From Thiocapsa sp. C3-3m (GTDB lineage Bacteria; Pseudomonadota; Gammaproteobacteria; Chromatiales; Chromatiaceae), in assembly GCF_041903755.1 (NCBI RefSeq), contig NZ_JBBWVE010000021.1, positions 6,167 to 70,166 on the forward strand: a DNA stretch of 64,000 bases. Reading direction: 5' to 3'. The notes beneath the pieces are model-generated. The model was not told where the DNA came from. It made no database searches and saw only the letters and a list, made by a program, of their open reading frames with translations. Numbering within the stretch: position 1 is the first letter of the stretch; each line of letters opens with the position of its first letter. Made by a program: the position numbers and the translations under genes. Below are positions 1,640 through 64,000 of this stretch, in pieces.

Positions 1640-3082
1640 TCAGCGCTGTCCGGACGGCGTTTCCAGCTCCAGGATCTCCATCCGATAGTTGCCGCAGGGG
1701 TTCTCCGCGGTTGGACCCTGGGTCAGCAAGACCAAGCCCTCGCGGATCCCGCGCTCGAAAAGCCATTGACGCACGAAGCTCGACCAGTCGGAGCGGTCGG
1801 CCTCGACCTGGATCGGATGGATGCCGTAGGAGAACTGCAGCGCCTGACAGGTGGCCCTGTTCGGGCTGAAGGCGATGATCCAGACCGGGAGCCGAAAGCG
1901 CGCTACGTTGCGGGGTGTGCTGCCCGTCTGGGTGGGGACGACGACCGCCTGCGGGGCGCTGTCCTTGATGGTGTGGTAGACGCTCGCGGCGATCAGGTCG
2001 ACGGCGCGCATTGGCCCCGACCTGTGGAACCCGTCCATGGTGCGCACGAAGGGCTGTTTGCTGCGCTCGGGCTCCACATGGTTGGCGATGCTTGCCAGCA
2101 TGGCGACGGACTCGATCGGGTAGCGCCCCATTGCCGATTCGGCGGAGAGCATGACGCAGTCGGTCCCGCCCAGGATGGCGTTGGCGACATCGGTCGCCTC
2201 TGCGCGGGTAGGGCGGCGGAAGGTCACCATGGATTCGAGCATCTGGGTGGCGGTGATCACGGGCTTGCCGAAGCGATTGGCGAGCTCCGTGATGTGTTTC
2301 TGCACCACGGCGATCCGCTCGATGGGGATCTCCACGCCTAGATCCCCCCGCGCGACCATGATGCCGTCGGCGACGCGCAGGATGGCCTCGAGGTTGTCCA
2401 GCGCATCGGCGCGCTCGATCTTGGCGATAATGAAGGGGGCATAGCCGATGGCGTCCGCCGCGCGGCGCACGGCAAGGATATCGTCGTCCGTGGCGACGAA
2501 GGATTGACTGACGGCATCCAGGCCGTGCTCGGCGGCAAAGTGCAGCCAACCGTGATCGTCTTCGGTGAAGGCGCTGATGCCGAGATTGATGCCCGGAAAG
2601 TTGAGCCCCTTGCGCGAGCGCAGCTCACCGCCGACGCGCACGCTGCAGCGGATCTCGGAGCCCTCGACCTCGAGCACCTTCAGCAGGATGAAGCCGTCGT
2701 TGAGGAAGAGTCTGTCACCCGGTTGAACCGCTGCCGGGAGGTCGAGAAAGCTCATGGAGACCCGCGACTTGTCGCCGATGATGTCCTCGGTCGTGAGGGT
2801 AAGGATATCGTCGCGCAGCAGCTCGACCGGCTCCTCGGCTAGATCGCCGATGCGCATCTTGGGGCCGGGCAGATCGCCCATGATGGCGACACGGCGCCCG
2901 GTGGCTGTCGCGGCCTCGCGGATACGCCCGATCAGCGCCCCGTGATAGTGCGGATCACCGTGCGAGAAATTCAATCGGGCCACGTTCATCCCGGCCTCGA
3001 TCAGGGCGCAGAGCATCTCGGGCGAATCCGACGCCGGGCCGATCGTCGCGACGATCTTGGTCTTGTGGTTGGGCAGTTGCAT
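1640..3082 (-). CDS. pyk: pyruvate kinase
   Basis: 480-aa ORF. N-terminus KTKIVATIGPASDSPEMLCALIEAGMNVARLNFSHGD, plus MGDLPGPKMRIG and MVARGDLGVEIP motifs characteristic of pyruvate kinase. Confidence 0.92.
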   Translation of the reverse strand: MQLPNHKTKIVATIGPASDSPEMLCALIEAGMNVARLNFSHGDPHYHGALIGRIREAATATGRRVAIMGDLPGPKMRIGDLAEEPVELLRDDILTLTTEDIIGDKSRVSMSFLDLPAAVQPGDRLFLNDGFILLKVLEVEGSEIRCSVRVGGELRSRKGLNFPGINLGISAFTEDDHGWLHFAAEHGLDAVSQSFVATDDDILAVRRAADAIGYAPFIIAKIERADALDNLEAILRVADGIMVARGDLGVEIPIERIAVVQKHITELANRFGKPVITATQMLESMVTFRRPTRAEATDVANAILGGTDCVMLSAESAMGRYPIESVAMLASIANHVEPERSKQPFVRTMDGFHRSGPMRAVDLIAASVYHTIKDSAPQAVVVPTQTGSTPRNVARFRLPVWIIAFSPNRATCQALQFSYGIHPIQVEADRSDWSSFVRQWLFERGIREGLVLLTQGPTAENPCGNYRMEILELETPSGQR

Positions 3083-3659
3083 GTCTGGATCTCGTACTGC
3101 TGGAGGGTTTGTTGCTCGGATGGCTCGGTCGAGGTTTCGGGCGGGCCCGAGCCGAGCATGACCGGTTGCTCGTCATCTAAGCATAACTTGCGCCAGATGT
3201 CAGATCACGATCCGGCGGGAGTGCCTGCTCGCGTGCGGGTTGCCGGCCGGGTTGTTCGGTCTGGACGTGACACCGATGGTCCGGCGCCCGAACGCCCGCG
3301 GCGGTTGTCGTTATACCGACGCACTGTGATGTTTGCGTGTCGTTGGGTCTGTCGGTGGGGTGGTCTTAGGCGATTTCCGGAGAATTCGGTACCCGTAGGT
3401 CGTGCTGACGATAGGAAGCACGACGTGCGCCGATGGTTGGGTGGCCCCCGCATGGCTCGGCACAACCTAGGGTCCGTCGGACAGGAGACCGACCTGCGGC
3501 GGGGTCTGGCGATTCTCGCGAATTGCCTGACGGGGCTTGCCCGTCACCGCGGCCGTCGTGACACGTGGCGCAGAGCGCCAAGGGGCATGCGTGAAACCGC
3601 GGAGCGGCTGTCACGAGCTCCCTGAGGTTGGGGTGGCCGGTCCGATGCGCGCAGCTGCC

Positions 3660-4265
3660 TTACGCCTCGTCACGAGACCGGCGCCAGACCAGGATCGCCG
3701 CTCGGTCGGTCTCCTGATCGTGCGCATAGAGGCGTTTCAGCTCGGCCCGATCGGCCTCTGGCGCATCCCGCAGCAGTCCCGCGACCGTAAGGATCGGGCT
3801 GCACCGCAAGACCGCGCCTGCAGTGACCTCGGCCAGATAGGTGGTGCGGTCGCCGATGTCCATGCGCGCTTCGACCCGACAGTCCATCCAGGACACGGCC
3901 CCCTCGATCAAGGGCGCGCCGGCGGATGTCTCGCGCGGCGGCAGGTCGGCAAACTTGTCCGCACTGTGCCCGGAGGCGAGCCCGAAGCGCCGAACGCTCG
4001 CGATATCATCGGCTGCAATGAGATGCAGTGCGAAGGATCCGCTCGCCTCGATCAGGCCCCAGGTGTGGTGGTGCTTGGCGACCGCGACGAGCATGCGCGG
4101 GATCTCGTGGACGATGGATGCGCGCGTTGCGGCAGTGGCGATGAAGCCGCCGCGGCGTGCCCCGTCGCGCGCCGTCACGAGCCACAGGGGTGGGTCGTAG
4201 AGATGGAAGACCTCATTGATGGCGTTGATCGCCGCTGGGCTTCTGACGTGCGCCTCGGTGCTCAT
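3660..4265 (-). CDS. flavin reductase-like (FMN-binding split-barrel) protein
   Basis: Internal ATG (MSTEAHV...) of ORF 3660..4484. WLVTARDGARRGGFIATAATRASI...LVAVAKHHHTWGLIEASGSFALHL resembles the flavin reductase domain. The upstream part of the ORF is Arg-rich junk. Confidence 0.65.
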   Translation of the reverse strand: MSTEAHVRSPAAINAINEVFHLYDPPLWLVTARDGARRGGFIATAATRASIVHEIPRMLVAVAKHHHTWGLIEASGSFALHLIAADDIASVRRFGLASGHSADKFADLPPRETSAGAPLIEGAVSWMDCRVEARMDIGDRTTYLAEVTAGAVLRCSPILTVAGLLRDAPEADRAELKRLYAHDQETDRAAILVWRRSRDEA

Positions 4266-4297
4266 GTCATGTCGGCCGGCTGTTGCAGAGGGACGCG

Positions 4298-4588
4298 TCA
4301 GACCGAGGGAAGGGACGGAACCAGGCTGTCGAGCTTCTCGGTGATGCTCTGCTCGATCCGATCTTTGAAGGGTTTGAGCAGGAATCCGAGCGAGACCTCG
4401 AGGATCAGCAGGGTCTCGGTCACCTCGACGCATCCGCTCGCGCCCGGCCGCGCGAAGTCGAGCCGATTGCCGTCCCACGCACATCGAGCATCGAGCTCCT
4501 CGACGAGCAGATAGGCGAGGGCCTCGACCTGGTCGAGCGCCCGATCGAGGCCCAATGTGTGCTCGCGTTCGATGAAGATGTCTGCCAT
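4298..4588 (-). CDS. small polyhydroxyalkanoic acid system protein (PHA_gran_rgn-like)
   Basis: 97 aa starting MADIFIEREHTLGLDRALDQVEAL...GCVEVTETLLILEVSLGFLLKPFKDRIEQSITEKLDSL. Size and pattern match my recollection of the TIGR02610-type PHA system family. Confidence 0.6.
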   Translation of the reverse strand: MADIFIEREHTLGLDRALDQVEALAYLLVEELDARCAWDGNRLDFARPGASGCVEVTETLLILEVSLGFLLKPFKDRIEQSITEKLDSLVPSLPSV

Positions 4589-5746: not shown

Positions 5747-5993
5747 GGTTAGGGTCGGAGCCGGTTGGTTGACCTGCTTCTGAGTATAGAACCGATCCGA
5801 AAAGAGAACAGGCAACCGGCGGGTTCTTCGTCACTTTGATTCTCCGTGACCTCCGTGTCTCCGTGAGAGGCATTTCGAGCTGGAACCCCTGTGCCGACGT
5901 TGACCGATAGGTGGTGAGGGCCGGTCGGAACACGGCGACACGCTCGACTCGGCGCCGGCGTATACTCACGGATTTTTCCGGACGGAGTCGAAG

Positions 5994-7092
5994 ATGCTCG
6001 ACATCAACCCGATCGCTTACCAAATCAGTGACCTCAAGGGACGTGTCGAGTCCCTTAGGGGGTATCTTTGACTACCCGGAACGCAAAGAGCGTTTGACGG
6101 AAGTCCTGCGCGAGCTGGAAGACCCCAAGATCTGGAACGAACCGGAACGTGCTCAGACCCTCGGGCGCGAGCGTGCGACGCTCGAGGCGATCGTGCTCAC
6201 GATCGACGAGCTCACGACCGGGCTGGTCGATGCCGACGATCTGCTGGCGATGGCCGCCGAGGAGCAGGACGAGGAGACGCTCGCCGCGGTCGCGAAGGAC
6301 CTGGATCAGCAAGAGTCGAAGGTCGCCGCGCTCGAGTTTCGGCGCATGTTCGCCGGCGAGATGGACGCGAAGAATGCCTATGTCGATGTCCAGGCCGGAT
6401 CGGGCGGGACCGAGGCGCAGGACTGGGCCGAGATGCTGTTGCGCATGTATCTGCGCTGGGGCGAGCGTCGCGGCTTCAAGACCGAGCTGCTCGAGGTCTC
6501 GCCCGGCGAGGTCGCGGGCATCAAGTCGGCGACCATTCAGTTTTCGGGCGATTACGCCTTTGGTTGGCTGCGTACCGAGACCGGCGTGCATCGCTTGGTG
6601 CGCAAGTCGCCGTTCGACTCGGGCAACCGGCGCCACACCTCCTTTGCTGCCGTCTTCGTCTCGCCCGAGGTCGACGACACCGTCAACATCGAAATCAACC
6701 CGTCGGACCTGCGCATCGATGTCTACCGAGCGAGCGGCGCGGGCGGTCAGCACGTCAACCGGACCGAGTCCGCCGTGCGCATTACCCATAACCCGACCGG
6801 AATCGTCGTCCAATGCCAGACCGATCGGTCGCAGCACAAGAACAAAGACCACGCGATGAAGCAGCTCAAGGCCAAGCTCTATGAGCTTGAGATGCAGAAC
6901 CGGCGTGCCAGTCAGCAAGCGATCGAAGACACCAAGTCGGACATCGGGTGGGGTAGCCAGATTCGCTCCTATGTGCTTGATCAATCACGCATCAAAGATC
7001 TGCGCACCAACGTGGAGATCGCCAACACCCAATCGGTGCTGGACGGCAATCTGGATCCCTTTATCGAGGCCAGTCTCAAAAGCGGTCTCTAA
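5994..7092 (+). CDS. prfB: peptide chain release factor 2 (two reading frames joined by a +1 frameshift: 5994..6068 and 6070..7092)
   Basis: Frame 0 encodes [25 protein letters not shown] then TGA at 6069. The +1 frame continues [29 protein letters not shown]...[19 protein letters not shown] (GGQ motif)...SPF region. It is collinear with E. coli RF2 over the whole length. Confidence 0.95.
6054..6072 (+). promoter_or_regulatory. RF2 programmed +1 frameshift site (CTT AGG GGG TAT CTT TGA C)
   Basis: Internal SD-like AGGGGG, slippery CTT followed by in-frame TGA C. This is identical in architecture to the E. coli prfB recoding site. Confidence 0.9.
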
Positions 7093-53608: not shown

Positions 53609-55944
53609 TCACACGTCAAGACCCGCCCCGTTCTTTCGCAGCCATTCCTTCCGCTCGTCGAAGTGAACGGTGCAGTGCTTGCGGATGGCATGCTCCATCT
53701 CGCTGGCCTTCGCCTCGTCGTTGCCCCGCGCGTGGTTGTCCACATGCGCCAGGAAGTCATCGGACAGCAGCTCGACCGGCGGGATCTTGGGGTCGATCCC
53801 CAAGTCGATCAGGTGCGCGTTGATGAGCGCCTTGACCTTCTCGCCGGCGTCGGCGATGTCCAGAGAGTCATCCTTGTAACGCTCCTTGACCATCCTCAGC
53901 AGGTAGCCGAAGCGGCGAGCCGCCCCGCGGTAGGGATGGCCCGCCGGGCTCGGCAGGATGAAGTTGAGGCTCTGGAGAAACTTCTTGAGATAGACCTCGA
54001 AGTCGGCGCGCCGCTTGATGTCCTCCATCGCACAAACGGCCGCATGGATGACTGCGACGTCGGCGTCGGGCGACCCGAGCTGTCCTTGGACGAACGTCTC
54101 GATCTCGGCCACGCCGGCAGCCATGAAATGCTGTAGCAGACGCCGGTAGCGCTCCTCCAGGATGGGCATCTCGCTCAGGATGCTCTTCAGCCCGTCGCGA
54201 ATGTCCTGCGCGTCCTCCTCGGAGTAGATAGACAGTGCGTGGGTCAGATGATTGGCCAGGCCGATGTAATCGACGATGAATCCGCGATGCTTGTTCGCCA
54301 CGACCCGATTCACACGGGCGATGGCCTGCAGCAGGGTGTGCTCGCGCAGCCGCTTGTCGATATACATCACCTGCTCGATGGGTGCATCGAAACCCGTCAG
54401 CAACATGTCGCAGACGATCAGGAAGGCGATGCCCGTCAGCTCTTTGTCATGGTCGTCGAAGTCGAAAGGCCGGCAGAAATTCTCCACCGCGTTCCAGCGC
54501 TTGGCCTCCTTGCGCGCGTCGGTGATGGCCGCCGGCTCATTGGTCGGGTCCGACGACAGGACCGCCACCGCCTTGAAAAACGCGATGCGCCGAATCAGTT
54601 CCGCCTCCGGCCGGGCCTGCCGCATCTCGCGCTCGACCCGCTCCCGAAGCGCCTCGCGGATCGCCTTGCGATAGCGGATCGCCGCCAGCTTCGAGTGACA
54701 CACGACCTGCGCCTTGAAGCCGTCGGGCAGGATGTTGTCGATGTAATGGTCGACCAGATCCTTGGCGATGGCCTCGATGCGTTTCTCGGCCTCGAGGATG
54801 TCCCCGCTGGCGCCGTACTTCTTCTTGATCGCGAGGATCTCTTCCTGGCTGCGGTCCTTGAAGAGGTCTTCGAACTTAATGTCGAAGCCGTGCTTGTCCT
54901 TGATGGCCGTGTCTGCCGTGCGGCCCTCGTAAAGGATCTGCAGGGTGGCGCCGTCATGGACGGCGTCCATGAGCTTGTAGGTATCGATGTACTCGCCGAA
55001 GCGCTTCACCGTGCCCGAGCGCAGGCGCTCGACGATCTTGCGGGCCGCCCGATACTGCTGATAGCGGCAGACCACCTTGATGCGCTGGCCCGAATCGGTA
55101 TCCATGAAGACGGTGCAAGTGCGCAGCACATCGAGCAGCGTCGCCGGGGCGAGCAACCCCTGGATGAGCCGTTCCTGCTCGCGCTCGATGCCGAGCGGCG
55201 GCTATAGGCCCGATTGCTCTCGGGCCAGATGTCCTTCCAGGCGTAGAAGTGCTCGTGTCCCGAGGTGAGGGTGCCGAATTCGGCCTTCTCGCCGCAGGTC
55301 CGCACCACCAGCAGGTTGGTGTAGAAGAGCCGCGGCTCGCCCTCGCGCAGTCCCGCCTCGATCGTCTCGGGACGGCCGTTGCGGTAGCGCAAGAGCTGCT
55401 CGAAGGCCGCGTGCAGCGGGTTCGCCGTGTTCGGGTCGCCGATCTTCGCCTCGACGATCACCAGAGGGATACCGTTCACGAAGAGGACGATGTCCGGGAT
55501 GATGAAGCCCTTCACGCAGCCCGGGGTGTCGACGCGAAACTGGTTGATGACGTGGAACCGGTTACGCTCGGGATGGGCGAAATCGATCATCATCACGACC
55601 GGGTCGGACTCGCCCGTGACCTTGTTCCGGTCGACCTGCGCCTTGAGAAAGAGACCCTGGGTCGTCTCGTTGGCTTCGAGCAGGGTGCGGTTGGGCTGGC
55701 GCAGGATCTGATCGCGCAGGTCGTCGAGCTGGCGGTCGGTGAGCCAAGGCCGACCGTCCGGGGTCAGGTTGATGGCGCGAACCGACTCGCGGAAGACCTC
55801 GGGGAGGAACCACTCGCGGAAGCTCGTACGCAGGCTCTTGGCCGGGTCCGAGGGGATGATGCCCTGGCCCTGGTCGATGGCCTTCCAGCCCAGCGCGGCG
55901 AGCTGGTCGAGGAAGGGTTTTTCGACGTGGAGGTACTCAGACAT
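53609..55944 (-). pseudogene. hsdR: Type I restriction enzyme R subunit, frameshifted and lacking the ATPase N-lobe
   Basis: The N-terminal nuclease region is intact (MSEYLHVEKPFLDQL...IPDIVLFVNGIPLVIVEAK). The frame breaks near 55200 (..YAWKDIWPES, then PPLGIEREQERLIQGLL in another frame). After RYQQYRAARKIVERLRSG the sequence jumps to FGEYIDTYKLMDAVHDGATLQILYEGR, so the Walker A/DEAH lobe is missing. Total 2.3 kb versus roughly 3.1 kb expected. Confidence 0.8.
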
Positions 55945-56872
55945 CCCGAGCGCCAGCCTCTTGATTCGTGTCGCATCGATAGCCCATCAGCGTGTACCGT
56001 GGCCGCCCTGCGCCAACGTACCGGGAACGGACCTGTATGCTCACGGGCCGTTGAATCACCTGGTTCAGTTGGGCCGCATCCTCAAGTTCCTCACCGACCC
56101 TGCCCGCAATGACCGTCTGCGCATCCGCAACTTCGAATTCGAAGGTTCTGCGCTTAGGCAACACGCCGAGAAAATGACCGAATAGTGTCTCGTCTGACTC
56201 ATGGATATTGTCTTGCCGCAAACGCTCAGAGCTGCGGCGAAGTTGTTCGACATCTGCAAAACGAAACACTTCTTCCTTGAGCTCCAAGGCGCATACAGCC
56301 TCGTGCTTGCTCAGTTCCTCCAAAAACTTGCGCAATGCGTCGAGCGCCCGCGGATCGACCTCGGCCAAAGCTTCGGACAGCTCATCATCCGTCCCGGTCG
56401 ACGCCACCATGATCGCCTGGGTCTGTTCGACAGCCGCATCGAGCGCCGATGGAAGCATGCTCGCCTGATCCTCCGCCGCCGGCTCCTCGAGCACAAAGCC
56501 GAACGATCCCGTCGTGGTCCCGGTAATCAAGAGTCGAAACTCTTCTCGCTGTGGTAGGGAACCTCGTTTTCCGAGCGAGCGGCTCATGCTCGCCCCGATC
56601 GCCGCGACAGCATCAGTAAAGGTGCCTACAGCTGTCGCTCCGAACTCGGCGAACATGCCGTAACTGCCCACGATCGGCTTGCCCCGGAACGTCAGACGAA
56701 GGCGGAGCGGGTCGCGAATCAAGTCCGGATGGGCCGCGAGAAGATGTTCGATGTCCGCTTTTCGACTTTCGAGCCCCAACCGTTCGATGACGAAGTCATC
56801 AGGTGTGGACGCGATCATCTGCTCAAGGCTACCGAGCTCGGCCTGAAGCTGGCGATACTCTCCAAGGTTCAT
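55937..56872 (-). CDS. hypothetical 311-aa protein (cargo gene B), no recognisable domain
   Basis: Intact ORF. Its ATG overlaps the stop of gene A (ATGA) and its stop overlaps the hsdR ATG (ATGTCTGA). The N-terminal 49 aa are about 60% identical to fragment 58966..59148. Confidence 0.6.
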   Translation of the reverse strand: MNLGEYRQLQAELGSLEQMIASTPDDFVIERLGLESRKADIEHLLAAHPDLIRDPLRLRLTFRGKPIVGSYGMFAEFGATAVGTFTDAVAAIGASMSRSLGKRGSLPQREEFRLLITGTTTGSFGFVLEEPAAEDQASMLPSALDAAVEQTQAIMVASTGTDDELSEALAEVDPRALDALRKFLEELSKHEAVCALELKEEVFRFADVEQLRRSSERLRQDNIHESDETLFGHFLGVLPKRRTFEFEVADAQTVIAGRVGEELEDAAQLNQVIQRPVSIQVRSRYVGAGRPRYTLMGYRCDTNQEAGARDV

Positions 56873-57453
56873 AGGTCTGCATCCTCTTCGAGGGTGTCAG
56901 GCTGCACATTCTGTCGAGCCGCGCGATCGTCGTCCGCGTCGAGGCTCAGCTCAATATAGCCTTTCCAGACGCCCGAGCGGCGGTGCGACCAAAGGCTGTA
57001 CCAGTAACGCGACCGCTCCACCAGGTACTCGGGAGGCGCGCCGTTCAGTTGGACGAGAAACCCGTCGACGCGATAGTCCTGCTTACAACGGTTCCGGTCG
57101 AAAAGATTGGGGCGTCGGGCGATCAAATCCCGTTGTGTGATGCCGCTGGGCAAATGGGCGAAGGTGACCACATCGAGATCATTAGGGGCGCGACCTTCCA
57201 GACGCTCCACGTCTTCCAAGAAGCTGCCGTCGACCCACTGAAATCCCCGGGCGATACCCAGCTCGCGCAGGACCTGACGATATTCCAGGAGCCCAAGCAG
57301 GATTCGGTTTCGGTCGGAGGAGGTGCCGAACCGAAGCGCGAAGTCGAAGATGCCGACCTGATACGGTGAACGATCCATGGACGTTGGCGACGCAGGATTG
57401 ATCGAGGGTAGGACGCCCGAGGACGTCCAGCCAGGGATAGTCTTTGCGCGCAT
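56869..57453 (-). CDS. small nucleotidyltransferase-fold protein (cargo gene A; DUF6932-like from memory)
   Basis: ATG at 57453 after AAGGAA. MRAKTIPGWTSSGVLP...SPYQVGIFDFALRFGTSSDRNRILLGLLEYRQVLRELGIARGFQWVDGSFLEDVERLEGRAPNDLDVVTF contains a G-S...D-x-D pol-beta-type signature. Confidence 0.6.
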   Translation of the reverse strand: MRAKTIPGWTSSGVLPSINPASPTSMDRSPYQVGIFDFALRFGTSSDRNRILLGLLEYRQVLRELGIARGFQWVDGSFLEDVERLEGRAPNDLDVVTFAHLPSGITQRDLIARRPNLFDRNRCKQDYRVDGFLVQLNGAPPEYLVERSRYWYSLWSHRRSGVWKGYIELSLDADDDRAARQNVQPDTLEEDADL

Positions 57454-57577
57454 GGATTCCGTTTTCCTTTCGCGATTCTGGTGGTTCCTGGTATGCCGAT
57501 TCCAGCGCGGCGAGTTGGGCGAGCAAGTGGTTTGGGTTAGCGAAGCGTAACCCGACGCGGGCGGGGCTGAACGTCCC

Positions 57578-57761
57578 GGGTCGGGTTGATGGCGCGAACC
57601 GACTCGCGGAAGACCTCGGAGAGGAACCACTCGCGGAAGCTCGTGCGCAGGCTCTTGGCCGGGTCCGAGGGGATGATGCCCTGGCCCTGGTCGATGGCCT
57701 TCCAGCCCAGCGCGGCGAGCTGGTCGAGGAAGGGTTTTTCGACGTGGAGGTATTCGCTCAC
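57578..57761 (-). pseudogene. second copy of the hsdR 5' end (first 61 codons, GTG start)
   Basis: 184 bp about 96% identical to 55761..55944. Encodes MSEYLHVEKPFLDQLAALGWKAIDQGQGIIPSDPAKSLRTSFREWFLSEVFRESVRAIN, then diverges. Confidence 0.85.
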
Positions 57762-57776
57762 GTCGCGAACCCGTGC

Positions 57777-58403
57777 TTAGGCCGCCAGCCGATCCAACCC
57801 CAACCCGAGCAGACGATCATCGAACAGGCCCTCCTTGCGACGTGCGGCCGCGTTGCCGGCGGGCCACTCGCGCAGGCCCTTGCGTAGTCCTTCGATCGTG
57901 GCTTCCGCGCGCTCGTGTACCAGCAGCCAGTCGACCGTGGCAAGCAGCTCCATACCGAGCGGAGACTCGAACCCGTCGATGACCTCGCTCAGCCGCGCGA
58001 GCGCCGGTTGATAATCCGCAGCCGGCGCGCTCGCCAGATATTCCGCCAACGCAGCACGGCGTTCGTCTCGAAAATAGATGCGGTCCAATGGTCCGGCGTC
58101 GGCAAGCCGCTTCTCGCTGGTCAGCCAGGCACCATCCAGGTCGTTCAGCAGATGTCTCAAGCGATCCGAATAGGGACCGTAACGATCGGCCTTGAACTGC
58201 ATGCGCAAGGGATCTCTCAGTCCCAAGGACGTCACGCAGCGCTCGATAAAATAGGCGAGCTTCTGGACCTCGAGTATCGAACACTCGATGCCCAAGACCG
58301 AGTAACGTCGCACGGCCTCCGCAACGAGTGCGCGCGCCGGCGTCAACCTCTCGCTGCCGCTGCGCTTTCGCGGGGTAGAGTAGGTCTGGGTCGGCTCGAA
58401 CAA
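57777..58403 (-). pseudogene. DUF4065/Panacea-like (SocA-type) domain ORF, apparently 5'-truncated
   Basis: SILEVQKLAYFIERCVTSLGLRDPLRMQFKADRYGPYSDRLRHLLNDL...GFESPLGMELLATVDWL. No ATG at the ORF head (TTG right after a stop). I recall this module as the C-terminal half of macro-domain proteins found in hsd loci. It ends 16 nt before hsdR 5' copy 2. Confidence 0.4.
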
Positions 58404-58441: not shown

Positions 58442-58687
58442 TCACGGATCAACTCGGATTTCATCGAAGCCCTTTGACAGTGTCCGGCCTTGAGCGGATT
58501 GCCGCAACGCATCTCGCGCAAGCTCCGACAATCTATCCTGCGGCTGCTGCAGAGTCGTCTGCCAGGCCAATTCATTCTCGATATCCTGGAGCCATTGATC
58601 GGCCATTTCGTCCTGAATCTCTAAAGGCAAGGCCGATGCCCACTGAATCACCTGCTCTAGTCGAGTCATGCCGATATCCCTGGTCAC
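58442..58687 (-). CDS. small antitoxin-like hypothetical protein
   Basis: 81 aa, acidic, helical (RLEQVIQWASALPLEIQDEMADQWLQDIENELAWQTTLQQPQDRLSELARDALRQSAQGRT). It resembles short antitoxin-type proteins, but I cannot assign a family. Confidence 0.35.
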   Translation of the reverse strand: MTRDIGMTRLEQVIQWASALPLEIQDEMADQWLQDIENELAWQTTLQQPQDRLSELARDALRQSAQGRTLSKGFDEIRVDP

Positions 58688-58965: not shown

Positions 58966-59148
58966 CTACCGCGAAAGGTCGGGCGAGCCCGCGCCGGCCT
59001 GCGGCTCGGCCGCCAGCAAAGCCTCGATCTCGTCTTTACGGGATTCGAGACCGAGGCGGTCGATCACATGCTCTTCCGGAATCTCTTCAAGCATGCGCTC
59101 GATGGCGCCTTTTTCCGCCTGAAGAAACCGATACTCCTGAAGCGTCAT
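58966..59148 (-). pseudogene. truncated paralogue of cargo gene B (N-terminal about 49 codons)
   Basis: MTLQEYRFLQAEKGAIERMLEEIPEEHVIDRLGLESRKDEIEALLAAEP versus MNLGEYRQLQAELGSLEQMIASTPDDFVIERLGLESRKADIEHLLAAHP. It has its own GGGAGG RBS. Confidence 0.55.
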
Positions 59149-59177: not shown

Positions 59178-59290
59178 GGCCCGTGCGGACAGCTCCGATG
59201 GGATAATGCTCGGGCCTTGTTCCAGGACCTTCGAGCCCGGCGGGTCGAGCTGGTCGCGGAAGCGCCTTTCGACGTGAAGATCCTCAGACA
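59178..59290 (-). pseudogene. third, more diverged hsdR 5' fragment directly after hsdS
   Basis: MSEDLHVERRFRDQLDPPGSKVLEQGPSIIPS.. versus MSEYLHVEKPFLDQLAALGWKAIDQGQGIIPS... About 70-75% DNA identity by eye. Its ATG lies 1 nt after the hsdS stop. Confidence 0.5.
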
Positions 59291-60470
59291 TTTGCCGCGA
59301 CCTCCACAGGCACTATGGTTGCGTTCGCGCTCGCAAGAACTCTTCCTGAAAGGAGGTCGGTCATGAGGCCGTGTTTGAGTTTCCTTAGTTTGTCGCGCTC
59401 CAGTATCAGCAAGTGAATTTCATCGTTATGAGCAAGAAGGATCTCGGCTATCATGCGCTGCTCATTGATCGGAGCAAGAGGCACCTGCAAGGCTTTCAAT
59501 TGCGCCGTGTTGATGCCTTCTCGTGTGCCTCGGCCCTTGTCACGCTCGACCTGCCGCTTGACGATTTCTCCATTGAAAGCGGCCTCGATAAAAAGGGGCG
59601 CACACTTGCAGCAGTCAAGGGCAACGCGAATGATGTGATAGTTGATAAGGCAGCCATCAACGAGATTCGTCGCCAGCGCATTGCGCCCCGTTGTCGCTCC
59701 TTGTCGCGCGAAAAGCAGATCGCCGGCTCTCACAACGTAGCGCGCAAGCTCTCGCGCCTTGCTCGGCGTCACGAATAGCAGCTCGGAAAGCTCAAGATAC
59801 CCTGCCTGAACATTGCCGATTCTCAGAACGGGAACCCCGTCGTCCACGAAATCGTCGTTACCGAGATCTGCCCCGAACGGACCGGTAAGAATCGGCTGCC
59901 TCTTCTCATCCGCGACATCAAGAAGCGAGCCCGTGACCCAGCCTTGAGGCAGCAAACCGAACTGGGTGCGGGAACACCGGATCGCGGGCTTAAGCTGACC
60001 GTCCGAGGCCACCCCTCGGGTGAAGAGGTCGTGCATCAGGCCCGCCTTGATCTGCTGCGTCTTGGCGATGAGCGCTTCTGTTTGTTCGATGGCCTCGTCG
60101 ACCGTCGAGAGGATTTCGGCGATGCGCTGCTGTTGCTCAAAAGAGGGGAAAAGGTCAGACGCCTTGTCGAGATCTCGGACTGAGAGGTGTTTTACAGTAG
60201 TCGCCGCGGTCCTGGCATGAATGCGTGTGAGTGCCAGTCCGTTAGCCGCGTCGCGCTTCCGCTCGATGTCAGTGGCGGTCGTGGCGTACTTGGTGTGGAG
60301 GTTCTCCAGCGCTGCCAAACACGCCCGCTGATCCGCCCGCAGATACAACTCATAGGTCTGCACCAGCAGCCGATGCAGTCGCTCGACGATGACCTTCCGC
60401 GCCTCGTCCCGGTCGATCTTCTCGCGGGCCGCGGCGACCAGGTCTTCTTGCCTCTTCTCGGTGGCACTCA
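59284..60470 (-). pseudogene. hsdS: chimeric remnant: HsdM C-terminal helical tail fused in frame to a single-TRD (half) HsdS
   Basis: ARKVIVERLHRLLVQTYELYLRADQRACLAALENLHTKYATTATDIE (HsdM tail) runs without a stop into PSFEQQQRIAEILSTVDEAIEQTEALIAKTQQIKAGLMHDLFTRG (S central conserved region). One TRD follows (LPQGWVTGSLLDV...GVPVLRIGNVQ...GDLLFARQGATTG), then the distal conserved region PLAPINEQRMIAEIL...LKHGLMTDLLSGRV. Confidence 0.65.
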
Positions 60471-60956
60471 GCCGTGCAGGAGCATGTTCATCTTGCAGAT
60501 GGACCAGGTGGTTCCGATGCTTTCCTGGCCGTAGACGGAGAGATCGCGCGGGTCGCCGCCGATCTTGCGGATGTAGTCGCGCGTCTGGATGAGCATGCCC
60601 CCCGAGCCGCAGGTGGGGTCGTAGACGCTCATGCCCGGCTGCGGCTCGACGATCTCCACGAGTGTGCGGACCACGTCGGCGGGGGTGTAGAACTCGCCGG
60701 CCTTCTTGCCGGCGGAGTCGGCGAAGTACTTGATCAGGTATTCGTAGGCGGCGCCGAGCAGATCGGGGAACTCGAAGTTCTCGTCGCGCAGCGGGATCTT
60801 CTCGAAGTTCTGGATGAAGTTCGACTCGGAGAGCCGCTTCAGGAAGAGCATGCCGAAGATGTATTCCTTGTACTCCGAGGCATCCATGTTGCCGCGCAGG
60901 TCGTCGCAGGCACGGAACAGGAGGTTGGACAGCTGGCTTAAGGTGAGCTTGGTCAT
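60468..60956 (-). pseudogene. hsdM: Type I methyltransferase subunit, N-terminal 162 codons only (catalytic NPPF region deleted)
   Basis: MTKLTLSQLSNLLFRACDDLRGNMDASEYKEYIFGMLFLKRLS...GEFYTPADVVRTLVEIVEPQPGMSVYDPTCGSGGML (AdoMet motif I)...LSVYGQESIGTTWSICKMNMLLHG, then a stop. No NPPF motif occurs anywhere downstream. Confidence 0.75.
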
Positions 60957-61095
60957 GGGGATCCTTGAAAGAGCGGCTCGGACGGAGGGCGCCGCGTCGC
61001 ATGGCTCCGGCATTTCACCGCAGTGTAGGCCGGAGGCGTGCCGAAGCTTCTCAAGGTACCAAACGAAAGGCCGATCGAGCGCCCGCGCGGTGATA

Positions 61096-62793
61096 CTACT
61101 CCAAGACGTAGGTTCCGGGTGCAGCGCAAAGCACCGGATGCTCGGCGGTTCCCAAGGAGGAAGGCGAGACCTGCGGTCCGCAGCGGTCCGACAGCCAACC
61201 CGCCCAGTCGGTCCACCAGGATCCCTGGAGAGGCGTTTGGGTGGCCAGCCAGTCGTCCGGTGCAGTACCGAGCTCGACATCCCCGGACCAATAGCGTCGA
61301 CGCGATTTCGCGGACGGCGGGTTCAGGATGCCTGCCACGTGACCCTCGCTGGAGAGGCTAAAGCGGATCGGGACGCGGACATGGTCGCGGACTCGGAAGA
61401 CCTCTGTCCAGGGAGCGATATGGTCCTGAATGCAGCCGACGGCATAGAGCGGCTGCTCGATGTTGCTCAGTCGGAGCTGGCGCCCGGCGAGCGTCAGGCC
61501 CTGCTCGGACACCAAGCGGTTGTTCAGATAGAGCTCGCGAAGGTAGAAGGAGAGCATCCGTCTGGGCAGTCGCGTCGAGTCGCTGTTCCAATAGAGTACG
61601 TCGGATCGAGAGGGTGCGTCGCCATACAGATAGTTGCGAACGGCGTGATGCCAGATCAGGCTGTCGGAGCGCAACAGCCGAAAGACCGTCTCAGTCACCT
61701 TGCCGTCGAGATAGCCGTCGCGCTCCATCAGGGTCTCGGCCGACTGCACGGCGCCTTCGGAGGTGAAGCGCTCCAGCTCGCCGGGGTTCGAGAAGTCGAC
61801 GAGGGTCGTGAAGAGCGTCCAATGCGCAACCGGGGAAGCAGGTCGGTCGCCGTTGGTCCGCGACGCCGGGTCGGCAAGCCAGGCCATGAGGCTGGCCAAG
61901 GCGGTCCCGCCGATGCAGAAGCCGACCGCGTGGACGGACTCGGTGCCGGCGATGCTCCGCGCTGTTTCAATCGCCTCCAAGGCGCCTTCCAGGACATAGT
62001 CCTCGAACCCGACATCCTGCATCGCCGAGTCGGGATTCTTCCAACTGATCGAGAAGACGGTAAAACCCTGATCGCGCAGCCAAGCCATCAGGCTGCGCTC
62101 GGGGGCGAGATCCAGGATGTAATACTTGTTGATCCAAGGGGTGATGAAGACGATCGGGGTTTGGAACACCCGCTCGGTGCTTGGCGCATACTGAATCAGC
62201 TCCATCAGACGATTGCGGTGAACCACCGCCCCCGGCGTGGCCGCTAAATTCACCCCGACCTGGAAACGGTCCCGATCGACCGTCGCGACCAGTCCCTGCG
62301 TTTCCTGTTGATCCCTCAACCAGTTTGCATAGCCTTTCTGCAGGCTCTCGCCGTCGGTATCGAAACAGCGCTGAACGGCGCCGGGGTTGGCCCAGAAGAA
62401 GTTGCTCGGCGCCAAGGCCCCCGAGACTTGGGCGGACCAGAACCGACAGCGCTCGCGGTGATCGTCGTCCAAGCCGGGTGCGTCCGCGATCGAGGCAGCC
62501 ATCCATTCGGACCAAGCCGCGTGGCTCTCGCGCAGAACCCGATGATTGCGTTTGGCCGCGTCGAGGTACCAGGCTTTTCCGGGCTCGACACCTTGATTGG
62601 GTTCGGATCTGTGCGGGCTGGATGAATCATTCAGGGCACGGCCCATCTCCTCGACGACCGACCGGTTGATCTTGACGGCGGCCTCGGTGAACCGCCTGTG
62701 TAGGCCGGCCGGGTCATACGACCAGGTCTGGGCGAGCTTCAAAAAGCTTGTGGACACGAGCAGAGGGTCCCAAGGCTCGGGATTCGGGATCAT
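61096..62793 (-). CDS. phaC: class I-type poly(R)-hydroxyalkanoate synthase
   Basis: Start MIPNPEPW, 4 nt after the ACP stop. PIVFITPWINKYYILDL, lipase box GFCIGG with catalytic Cys, DHIAPW, and the His region SSEGHVAGILNPP. About 565 aa. Confidence 0.85.
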   Translation of the reverse strand: MIPNPEPWDPLLVSTSFLKLAQTWSYDPAGLHRRFTEAAVKINRSVVEEMGRALNDSSSPHRSEPNQGVEPGKAWYLDAAKRNHRVLRESHAAWSEWMAASIADAPGLDDDHRERCRFWSAQVSGALAPSNFFWANPGAVQRCFDTDGESLQKGYANWLRDQQETQGLVATVDRDRFQVGVNLAATPGAVVHRNRLMELIQYAPSTERVFQTPIVFITPWINKYYILDLAPERSLMAWLRDQGFTVFSISWKNPDSAMQDVGFEDYVLEGALEAIETARSIAGTESVHAVGFCIGGTALASLMAWLADPASRTNGDRPASPVAHWTLFTTLVDFSNPGELERFTSEGAVQSAETLMERDGYLDGKVTETVFRLLRSDSLIWHHAVRNYLYGDAPSRSDVLYWNSDSTRLPRRMLSFYLRELYLNNRLVSEQGLTLAGRQLRLSNIEQPLYAVGCIQDHIAPWTEVFRVRDHVRVPIRFSLSSEGHVAGILNPPSAKSRRRYWSGDVELGTAPDDWLATQTPLQGSWWTDWAGWLSDRCGPQVSPSSLGTAEHPVLCAAPGTYVLE

Positions 62794-62797
62794 GATG

Positions 62798-63037
62798 TCA
62801 CCCGTTTCGGATCTGCTCGATGATCTCTCCGACACTGGTCTCACTGCTGAGCATCTCCTCCGGGATGGTGACGCCGAAGGTTGTGGCCAGATAGGTTTGA
62901 AGATTGACGGCCGACATGGAGTCCCAGCCGGGGATGTCGTCCAGAAGCGTCTCGGACCCGATGATCACATCGGCCGCATCGGGAAACAGCTCTTTGATGC
63001 AGGTCGAGAGTGTGTCGATATTGACGGCGTTGACCAT
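62798..63037 (-). CDS. acyl carrier protein (phosphopantetheine attachment site GWDSMSAV)
   Basis: 79 aa. ETLLDDIPGWDSMSAVNLQTYLATTFGV carries the DS-M/L Ser attachment motif of ACP/PCP domains. Confidence 0.8.
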   Translation of the reverse strand: MVNAVNIDTLSTCIKELFPDAADVIIGSETLLDDIPGWDSMSAVNLQTYLATTFGVTIPEEMLSSETSVGEIIEQIRNG

Positions 63038-63125: not shown

Positions 63126-64000
63126 TCAGAGTCGGATCAGGTTGGCTCCCCAGGACAGACCCCCTCCGAAGGCAACCGTGACTAGAAGATCACCCTCTTT
63201 GGCCTTCCCCAACGCAATTGCCTCGTCCAGCGCGATCGGAACGGATGCACTTGCGGTATTCCCGTAGCGATCCAGATTCACGAAGAATCGCTCGCGAGGG
63301 ACCTCCAATTGGTCTGCAATCGCATGGATGATGTTGATGTTCGCCTGATGGCTGACGAAGAGGTCGACATCTCCCGCGGCGATACCCGATCGGGTCAAAA
63401 GCTCGCGGATGACCTCCGCGCCTTTCTCGATGGCAAAGGCGTACACCCGTTTTCCGTCCATCTGAAAGTAGGCGGAGCGCGGATTGGTGATCCGATCGAA
63501 GGGCATCATGGTCCCTCCGCCCGGGACACTGATGGTGTCGCACGCGCTCCCGTCGGTGCGCAGCACGGAGTCGAGCACCCCGCGCTCCGAGCCGGCTTCG
63601 AAGAGGATGGCTCCGGCTCCGTCGCCGAAATAGGGAAAGGTCGAGAAATCTTGCTTATTGAGGATCTTGGTATAGAGCTCGGCGGCAATGAAGAGGATGC
63701 GCTCGTAGTTTCCGGATTTGATCAGCGCATCCGCCAGGCTAATGCCGTAGACGCTTCCCGAGCAAACCGAATTGATATCAAACGCGAACGCCCGGCGGGC
63801 ACCCAACAGGTGTTGGACACGTGTCGCGGTCGCCGGCTGAAGGCGGTCGGGCGAGGACGTGGAGACGATGATCCCTTCCAGATCGTCCGGCGCGACCCCG
63901 GCCTTCTCAAGGCAGTCGCGGGCCGCATGCGCGGCGAGATCGGAGGTGCATTCGTCATGGGTTGCGGAGCGTCGCGACAAAACCCCGGTCTTTTCGGAGA
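63126..64000 (-). CDS. 3-oxoacyl-ACP synthase III (FabH-like), 5' end outside window
   Basis: Frame open to the window edge. Active-site Cys in FDINSVCSGSVYGISLA, His in FVSHQANINII, Asn in YGNTASASVPIAL, and a GGGLSWGA tail. Confidence 0.85.
   Translation of the reverse strand, partial: SEKTGVLSRRSATHDECTSDLAAHAARDCLEKAGVAPDDLEGIIVSTSSPDRLQPATATRVQHLLGARRAFAFDINSVCSGSVYGISLADALIKSGNYERILFIAAELYTKILNKQDFSTFPYFGDGAGAILFEAGSERGVLDSVLRTDGSACDTISVPGGGTMMPFDRITNPRSAYFQMDGKRVYAFAIEKGAEVIRELLTRSGIAAGDVDLFVSHQANINIIHAIADQLEVPRERFFVNLDRYGNTASASVPIALDEAIALGKAKEGDLLVTVAFGGGLSWGANLIRL

Follow-up and report, generated by a model that had tools for sequence, protein, structure and literature searches.

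A DUF6932 nucleotidyltransferase-like gene and its OB-fold partner form a conserved, mobile two-gene module inside a dead type I restriction-modification locus of Thiocapsa sp. C3-3m

The DNA examined here is a stretch of 64,000 nucleotides (nt) from contig NZ_JBBWVE010000021.1 of Thiocapsa sp. C3-3m, and the whole of this stretch is referred to as the window. It carries two adjacent genes, called A and B below, within the remains of a type I restriction-modification (hsd) locus. The initial annotation had proposed this pair as a candidate new defence or toxin-antitoxin-like system, and the open reading frame (ORF) coordinates, the ATGA overlap, the 8-nt overlap with hsdR, the AAGGAA sequence, and the peptide strings on which it relied are all present in the sequence. 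The cassette consists of the following elements:

56869..57453, minus strand: gene A, 194 amino acids (aa), with its ATG at 57453 and its stop codon ending at 56869; read from the sequence
55937..56872, minus strand: gene B, 311 aa, with its ATG at 56872 and its stop codon ending at 55937; read from the sequence
57464..57469, minus strand: Shine-Dalgarno-like sequence AAGGAA, 10 nt upstream of the A start; read from the sequence
56869..56872, minus strand: ATGA overlap between the A stop and the B start, which couples the two genes translationally
55937..55944, minus strand: 8-nt overlap (ATGTCTGA) between the end of B and the hsdR start codon, with the hsdR ATG at 55944

The junction from A to B is equally tight at related loci, and several B homologues share a C-terminal ...DV ending, the expected product of the same hsdR-start junction.

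The product of A belongs to the Pfam family DUF6932 (PF22014; E 6.4e-29; 101.6 bits against a cut-off of 27; profile positions 2-141 of 142), an assignment that had been proposed before and that the profile search bears out. It also matches phrog_9194 (E 5.9e-32) and has an exact counterpart at NCBI, 'DUF6932 family protein [unclassified Thiocapsa]' (100% identity); homologues are counted in the hundreds, for A and for B alike. The DNA polymerase beta (pol-beta)-type nucleotidyltransferase (NTase) signature that had been recognised by eye is strongly conserved, as G76, S77, D92, and D94 are invariant in 222 full-length members and D130 is found in all but one of them. In the predicted model of A (pLDDT 88), these residues lie at the ends of the strands 69-75, 93-100, and 129-135, such that hG[GS], [DE]x[DE], and a third carboxylate stand on successive strands, the arrangement by which the pol-beta-type NTase superfamily is recognised. 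Further conserved blocks among the same 222 sequences are located in an N-terminal tail (P16, P17, P30, and Y31) and in a C-terminal YW...H...WKG segment. The expectation that A would model as an NTase has weak support: the best matches in a Foldseek search of the PDB are indeed minimal NTases, namely 2rff (E 0.014, probability 0.85) and the MNT antitoxin 7ae9 (E 0.023), but all of them are weak, as are those to 1wot, a CCA-adding enzyme, TENT5, and CdnC, with TM-scores of 0.26-0.45. Sequence and profile searches of the PDB with A and B returned chance matches only, such as designer pentatricopeptide (PPR) repeats. We therefore regard A as a predicted minimal pol-beta-type nucleotidyltransferase, and the sequence evidence for this assignment is stronger than the fold evidence.

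The product of B has no family match in Pfam. It matches phrog_18731 over its full length (E 3.9e-63), and its predicted model (pLDDT 81) ends in an oligonucleotide/oligosaccharide-binding (OB) fold. The model comprises an N-terminal helical hairpin, a central alpha/beta region that contains the invariant hairpin LLITGTxxGSFGFxxEE, and a C-terminal five-stranded OB-fold barrel (residues ~223-300). The barrel matches the single-stranded DNA-binding protein Rim1, RPA, the anticodon-binding domains of LysRS and AspRS, and CusF with a probability of ~1.0. The B family comprises 1,491 clusters at 50% identity (E <= 0.001), and its members are nearly always standalone proteins of 295-320 aa. No nuclease, HEPN, or other effector domain is recognisable in B by Pfam, PADLOC, or fold searches. 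An R-x6-H string (R217...H224) was considered as a HEPN motif and rejected, as the model places it outside any helical bundle, where a helix passes into a strand that leads to the OB-fold. Kyte-Doolittle hydropathy over 19 residues peaks at 0.62 for A and at 1.17 for B, and neither protein contains a membrane segment. As modelled, B is thus a soluble three-part protein that ends in an OB-fold.

Among models of viral proteins (BFVD), that of B resembles a 370-aa DUF6575 protein (E 4e-12) and a protein of Leptospira phage LE1 (E 2e-7). DUF6575 has been named among the domains of validated systems (Vassallo et al. 2022). This lead was set aside, as the system that carries the domain was not identified among those of Vassallo et al. 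2022 and B has no PADLOC match to PD-T4, PD-T7, or PD-lambda systems. We also note the acidity of both families (median isoelectric point (pI) ~5.2), a surprise in proteins whose proposed ligands are nucleic acids; the OB-fold region of B alone comes close to neutrality (median 6.8).

Relatives of B were found in 241 of 185,579 species-representative genomes, distributed over many bacterial phyla and the archaeal genera Methanothrix, Methanoculleus, and Methanogenium. Among the fetched genome loci that were chosen through B and had room upstream, 76 of 77 carry a DUF6932 gene or its remnant immediately upstream on the same strand. Conversely, in the 157 loci selected by way of A, of which 80 come from metagenomes and 77 from IMG/VR viral contigs, B lies immediately downstream wherever there is room. 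Even plasmid-borne B relatives with 27%-39% identity are still preceded by a DUF6932 gene, and no third conserved gene accompanies the pair in the neighbourhoods of the loci examined. A followed by B is accordingly an almost obligate operon in bacteria and archaea, and the synteny that had been named as a check on the original proposal proves to be nearly absolute. Two apparent A+B fusion proteins, both with PF22014 (P0038, 507 aa, and P0018, 420 aa), were rejected as true fusions; in each, an A damaged by frameshift or deletion runs on into a B that is intact.

The hsd genes around the pair are in a very different state, as the following remains show:

55006..55944, minus strand: N-terminal fragment of hsdR (HSDR_N, E 8.5e-28), out of frame with the remainder of hsdR
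53609..55156, minus strand: C-terminal fragment of hsdR, with the tails of the SWI2_SNF2 and T1R_D3 domains only
59284..61280, minus strand: decayed hsdM fused to hsdS pieces (HsdM_N 1-37 of 135; N6_Mtase 3-101 of 311; Methylase_S)

A relative with ~90% nucleotide identity (L088) preserves the undamaged layout, in the order hsdS, hsdR stub, DarT, DarG, hsdR stub, A, B, and a 1030-aa HsdR. Relative to L088, hsdR in the window lacks 615 bp and is frameshifted. The type I locus around A-B is therefore dead, as had been proposed; the same locus is present in assembly GCA_041903695.1.

Both genes of the pair have been under purifying selection while the surrounding hsd genes decayed, with the reservation that few substitutions underlie the estimates. 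The ratio of nonsynonymous to synonymous substitution rates (dN/dS) is 0.19 for A when compared with a 95% identical relative (L090), and that for B is 0.26 against L090 and 0.23 against L088 and a further locus, L089. These values uphold the independent selection that had been suspected, and A-B probably outlived its host hsd locus as it was selected on its own. A-B is a real, selected, and mobile two-gene conflict module, whose role in defence and whose mechanism we infer below.

The pair is not the sole cargo of the dead locus. It is the last surviving cassette of a stack that also includes a DarG remnant and a second B-type fragment. The further features of this stack are as follows:

55748-55944, minus strand: 5' end of hsdR, real copy, which bounds the A-B cassette
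57502..57533, minus strand: hsdR-start remnant that travels with the A-B cassette, just upstream of A
57565..57761, minus strand: hsdR 5' stub, copy 2, 96% identical to the real start, at the boundary of the DarTG remnant and A-B
57777..58403, minus strand: DarG remnant, C-terminal half (PADLOC DarG E 8.5e-38, profile positions 142-325 of 329)
58442..58687, minus strand: 81-aa ORF between the B fragment and the DarG remnant
58966..59148, minus strand: second B-type gene fragment (B hidden Markov model E 1e-15, residues ~1-51), with a weak out-of-frame continuation to ~66
59187..59291, minus strand: hsdR 5' stub, copy 3, 78% identical, between hsdS and the B fragment

Read along the minus strand, the order is hsdM/hsdS, hsdR stub, B fragment, 81-aa ORF, DarG remnant, hsdR stub, A, B, and the split hsdR. 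The second B-type fragment has no A upstream and sits upstream of the DarG remnant. The DarTG cassette of the window has lost darT and the macrodomain of DarG; in L088, DarT and DarG are intact at the same position (2416-4118). The 81-aa ORF has an acidic, helical, antitoxin-like look and no family match in Pfam, NCBIfam, or PADLOC.

The 5' end of hsdR is thus present as three direct repeats in the window, each of which bounds an embedded cassette, and L088 likewise contains three copies (2131-2318, 4140-4331, and 5957-6160). As the end point of stub copy 2 is identical in the window and in L088, this stub was inherited from a common ancestor. The hsdR-start remnant that travels with A-B has a counterpart of 54 nt in L090, which begins with the hsdR ATG (a range of 32-54 nt). 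Shorter junction duplications flank other embedded genes, with lengths of 86 nt in L007, 68 nt in L048, and 58 nt in L095. Comparison of these sequences suggests that cargo may be stacked and exchanged in hsd operons by a homology-driven route, and the repeats would fit either a single crossover of a circular DNA composed of junction and cassette or homology-facilitated illegitimate recombination. Beyond the hsd remnant, the window encodes a PhaC-like synthase (61096-62844), a small acyl-carrier-protein-like ORF (62798-63037), and a FabH-like ketoacyl synthase (63126-63980); these are genes of ordinary metabolism and mark the edge of the island.

Placement in hsd operons was counted for those loci whose flanks each measured 3 kb or more. 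A-B lies in or adjoins a type I hsd operon at 13 of the 51 genome loci and at 12 of the 21 from metagenomes (25%-57% of non-viral loci), usually between hsdS and hsdR with gaps that are often 3-40 nt. However, no hsd gene was found within 6 kb at 38 of 51 genome loci and at 49 of 50 viral loci. Because about three-quarters of the genome loci lie outside hsd operons and many have housekeeping neighbours, hsd embedding is one preferred home of A-B and not its defining feature. The enrichment of defence genes that had been named as a check is seen in these neighbourhoods, along with mobile elements and many housekeeping genes. The recurrent neighbours are other restriction-modification genes, SLFN/AlbA_2, AAA_15/21, Abi_2, DarT/Macro (DarTG), PIN/TacA, IS66/IS21, and integrases.

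The second home of the pair is downstream of the prophage repressor CI. In viral contigs (51 clusters), the two genes upstream of A-B mostly encode CI-type repressors and Cro-type regulators, and among the 96 upstream proteins scanned there were 25 matches to HTH_3, 18 to Peptidase_S24, and 12 to Phage_CI_repr. The coliphage mEpX1 (L248, NC_019709, 3914-5322) carries a homologous sister pair, gp42-gp41, between cI and nutL-N. In phage lambda, the same slot is occupied by rexAB. From this position in the repressor operon, it follows that the pair is expressed in lysogens and not during lytic growth. Among 50,697 phage records, a tblastn search with B gave no match, and A was matched in three records only, all of them of the temperate phage mEpX1. 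Hsd operons and the CI-repressor slot are two independent locations typical of defence cargo, and A-B displays the recurrent placement in defence hot spots by which anti-phage systems are recognised. Placement within type I operons has been exploited before as 'guilt by embedding' (Payne et al. 2024, 10.1101/2024.01.29.577857). As a separate observation, a distant A-B pair on the Bradyrhizobium plasmid pBs5S5b (L082, 6916-9748) adjoins a group of genes for multiubiquitin, ThiF, and DUF6527 proteins together with a gene of the VPA1262 family; the setting resembles a defence island, carried here by a conjugative plasmid.

The two genes are not disrupted equally often. A is disrupted while B is intact at 15 of the 77 loci chosen through B (frameshifted in 8, a fragment in 6, and absent in 1), whereas B is clearly disrupted beside an intact A at only 2 of 135 loci chosen through A, despite being the longer target. 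This asymmetry is significant by Fisher's test (p 7e-6, or 0.004 when only truncations are counted) in a comparison of genome bins with metagenome and viral contigs. Two independent samples (L088 and L089) share an identical 2-nt deletion in A with B intact, and a further locus (L072, 9444-12082) has the order hsdS, B, DarT, DarG, and hsdR with no A at all, an intact counterpart of the second B fragment of the window. The read-through proteins P0038 and P0018 described above are further cases of a degraded A with an intact B. At the level of sequence, this pattern argues that A is probably the harmful, or else a dispensable and costly, component and that B may be the retained antidote or guard.

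With respect to known systems, the closest relative is PDC-M63, a PADLOC candidate that is itself a prediction only (Payne et al. 2024, 10.1101/2024.01.29.577857). The PADLOC model PDC-M63A matches A with E 4.1e-9 and 34.6 bits, as compared with 139.6 bits for its true member mEpX1 gp42, while gp41 attains 151.3 bits on PDC-M63B. An hhalign comparison of the A profile with gp42 gives a probability of 93.8% with shared WVDGS...PxDxD...VD...YW.S.W motifs; by these alignments, A is clearly homologous to PDC-M63A, yet outside its core family. For B, the PADLOC models of PDC-M63B gave no match at E <= 0.1, and a 28-sequence B profile had no hhalign match to gp41 or the gp41 family (profile-to-profile probability 0.2%). 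A more diverse profile of 83 sequences aligned with PDC-M63B over 246 collinear columns, a full-length yet weak match (E 0.002, probability 13.8%). In both kinds of pair, the gene of a small NTase-like A (~150-160 aa in PDC-M63) comes first and overlaps that of a partner of ~310 aa, and both kinds occupy a prophage position downstream of cI. They differ in range, as the family of the window occurs in many bacterial phyla and methanogenic archaea, whereas the mEpX1 gp41 homologues with a named source all come from Enterobacterales. On these sequence comparisons, the window pair therefore probably represents a remote sister group of PDC-M63 and does not belong to that family itself, with the link through B being weak. 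The claim of a new system is thereby narrowed: A-B is not catalogued as such, and it is a variant of a catalogued, unvalidated kind. The supplementary tables of Payne et al. list PDC-M63 and PDC-M32 by family numbers only, without domain content (10.1101/2024.01.29.577857). As gp42-gp41 resides in a cultured lambdoid phage, it is a ready experimental model for the sister family. B also has a partial match to PDC-M32A (21 bits, E 2.8e-5, profile positions 61-210 of 375); neither A nor B matches PDC-M32B, and the pair is not a PDC-M32 system. No mention of DUF6932 was found in the literature searched.

Other two-gene systems resemble A-B in organisation. Neither protein has a Pfam, NCBIfam, or PADLOC match to MenT/AbiEii (DUF1814), AbiEi, MenA, HEPN, CD-NTases, or the PD-T4, PD-T7, and PD-lambda systems. 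NTase toxins are already known from MenT/AbiEii (PMC7450476, PMC10435456). Like MenAT and AbiE, A-B joins two genes, the proposed toxic component being an NTase of predicted pol-beta fold and its partner a protein of ~300 aa, about as long as AbiEi; it is also associated with mobile elements and defence, and its decay pattern fits toxin and antidote. Unlike them, its NTase gene comes first and not second, A is much smaller and acidic, and B has no helix-turn-helix domain. Lambda RexAB is likewise a two-gene cassette directly downstream of CI and upstream of nutL-N that is expressed in lysogens. RexB is an ion channel; A and B, however, have no homology to RexA or RexB and no hydrophobic segment.

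The reading that we prefer, with a probability of about 0.4, is that A-B is a self-contained, horizontally mobile operon of the toxin-antitoxin or abortive-infection type that operates independently of the hsd genes. In such an operon, A would be an active and potentially harmful effector that transfers a nucleotide onto a cellular or viral macromolecule, either the 3' end of an RNA or DNA or a protein. The target is left in this general form because the acidic pI of A speaks against tRNA as a substrate in the manner of MenT. B would bind A and hold it in check as a stoichiometric inhibitor, while its OB-fold would sense an infection cue, which may be a single-stranded nucleic acid or a phage protein. 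Upon sensing this cue, B would release or activate A, and the released A would stop the growth of the infected cell or phage.

Several points weigh against this reading. The toxicity of A, its inhibition by B, the trigger, and the substrate are all matters of inference. In the related PDC-M63, deletion of PDC-M63AB in its native host, E. coli NILS69, gave no phenotype against 10 virulent phages. Many genome loci have only housekeeping neighbours, and a scan for sigma-70 promoters and terminators around A-B found none that was recognisable, a result that is uninformative in GC-rich DNA. The Foldseek search with A gave nothing at E <= 0.001 in the PDB, so the fold support is weak; A has no detectable sequence relation to DUF1814/MenT, and the acidity of its family is unusual for a tRNA-binding toxin. 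Finally, the asymmetry in decay was estimated from different collections, and one locus (L114) shows the opposite of the common pattern, with an intact A and a B that is cut after residue 89.

It is possible that the roles are reversed, following the logic of HEPN-MNT and Hailong, although we consider this unlikely. A would then be protective, either by nucleotidylating B or by making an oligonucleotide for the OB-fold of B, and B would be an effector that is unleashed when a phage interferes with A or its product. In MNT-HEPN pairs, the NTase gene comes first and the gene of its partner overlaps it, as is the case for A-B; moreover, the MNT antitoxin 7ae9 ranks second among the fold matches of A, and A is acidic, as are many antitoxins. 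An OB-fold is also a natural receptor for single-stranded oligonucleotides. Hailong, which consists of the ion channel HalA and the NTase HalB, offers a precedent, as its effector is restrained by oligo-dA made by the NTase (PMC13434031), and A-B resembles it in pairing an NTase with a partner that could bind single-stranded oligonucleotides. However, A is often frameshifted, truncated, or absent beside an intact B, which would be lethal if A restrained a toxic B, and this frequent decay therefore speaks against such a restraint. Inactivation of the Hailong NTase is reported to be toxic (PMC13434031), whereas loss of A is seen here and apparently tolerated. In addition, B is soluble, with no membrane segment and hence not a membrane channel, and it has no recognisable nuclease, HEPN, or other effector domain; its model is alpha/beta with an OB-fold, and the asymmetry in decay speaks against the NTase as the antidote. 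No Hailong entry is present among the 50 listed PDB fold matches of A.

A second alternative, that A-B serves addiction or stabilisation alone, appears to us improbable to a similar degree. A-B would be a toxin-antitoxin pair for the persistence of prophages, plasmids, or islands, or an accessory of lysogeny, with no anti-phage role. The pair is indeed found on plasmids and beside integrases and insertion sequences, its prophage version sits in the immunity operon, the deletion of PDC-M63AB gave no defence phenotype, and the asymmetry in decay fits any toxin-antitoxin pair. Repeated insertion between hsdS and hsdR and the use of the rexAB slot are, on the other hand, typical of defence cargo (10.1101/2024.01.29.577857). 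Many toxin-antitoxin modules at such sites double as abortive infection systems, such that this alternative and the operon that we favour overlap.

We find it quite improbable that A-B is a phage counter-defence or a neutral passenger unrelated to host protection. Its occurrence in 77 IMG/VR viral contigs and the existence of PHROG families for both proteins, with no function attached to either, would be consistent with this possibility. However, B is unmatched and A nearly so in the phage records, the repressor-operon position implies expression in lysogens and not in lytic growth, the pair is common in chromosomal hsd operons and occurs also in archaea, and purifying selection argues against a neutral passenger. 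Finally, it is very improbable that A-B is an accessory that modulates or complements Hsd, for instance by regulating restriction or by modifying DNA or RNA, as the tight co-transcriptional embedding with short gaps to hsdS and hsdR in many loci, the overlap of B with the hsdR start codon in the window, and the ...DV ending of its homologues are outweighed by the absence of hsd genes from most genome and nearly all viral loci and by the conservation of the pair beside dead hsdM, hsdS, and hsdR.

A more far-reaching reading is one that we regard as doubtful, if conceivable. A-B would be an anti-phage system of a mechanism that has not been described, in which an acidic minimal NTase would be complexed with a new OB-fold protein of three domains. 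Once the OB-fold had recognised a phage protein or single-stranded nucleic acid, the NTase would nucleotidylate a target that differs from the tRNA 3' end modified by MenT and that is no cyclic-nucleotide signal either. Such a system would be common to bacteria, methanogenic archaea, and lambdoid prophages, in which it would replace rexAB.

The initial proposal that A-B is a candidate defence or toxin-antitoxin-like system is a reasonable one, and the support for it has grown. The asymmetry in the decay of A and B provides a testable prediction as to which protein is harmful, and the repeated hsdR 5' stubs may reveal a route by which cargo is stacked in hsd operons. If A-B is a true defence or abortive-infection module, PDC-M63 would gain a much larger and more diverse sister group, which would aid the choice of variants, and two signals of 'guilt by location', type I restriction operons and the repressor operon of temperate phages, would be joined in one system. 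It would also give a function to DUF6932, a Pfam domain of unknown function, and establish its 311-aa OB-fold partner as a new family of ~1,500 clusters at 50% identity that extends across bacterial phyla and methanogens.

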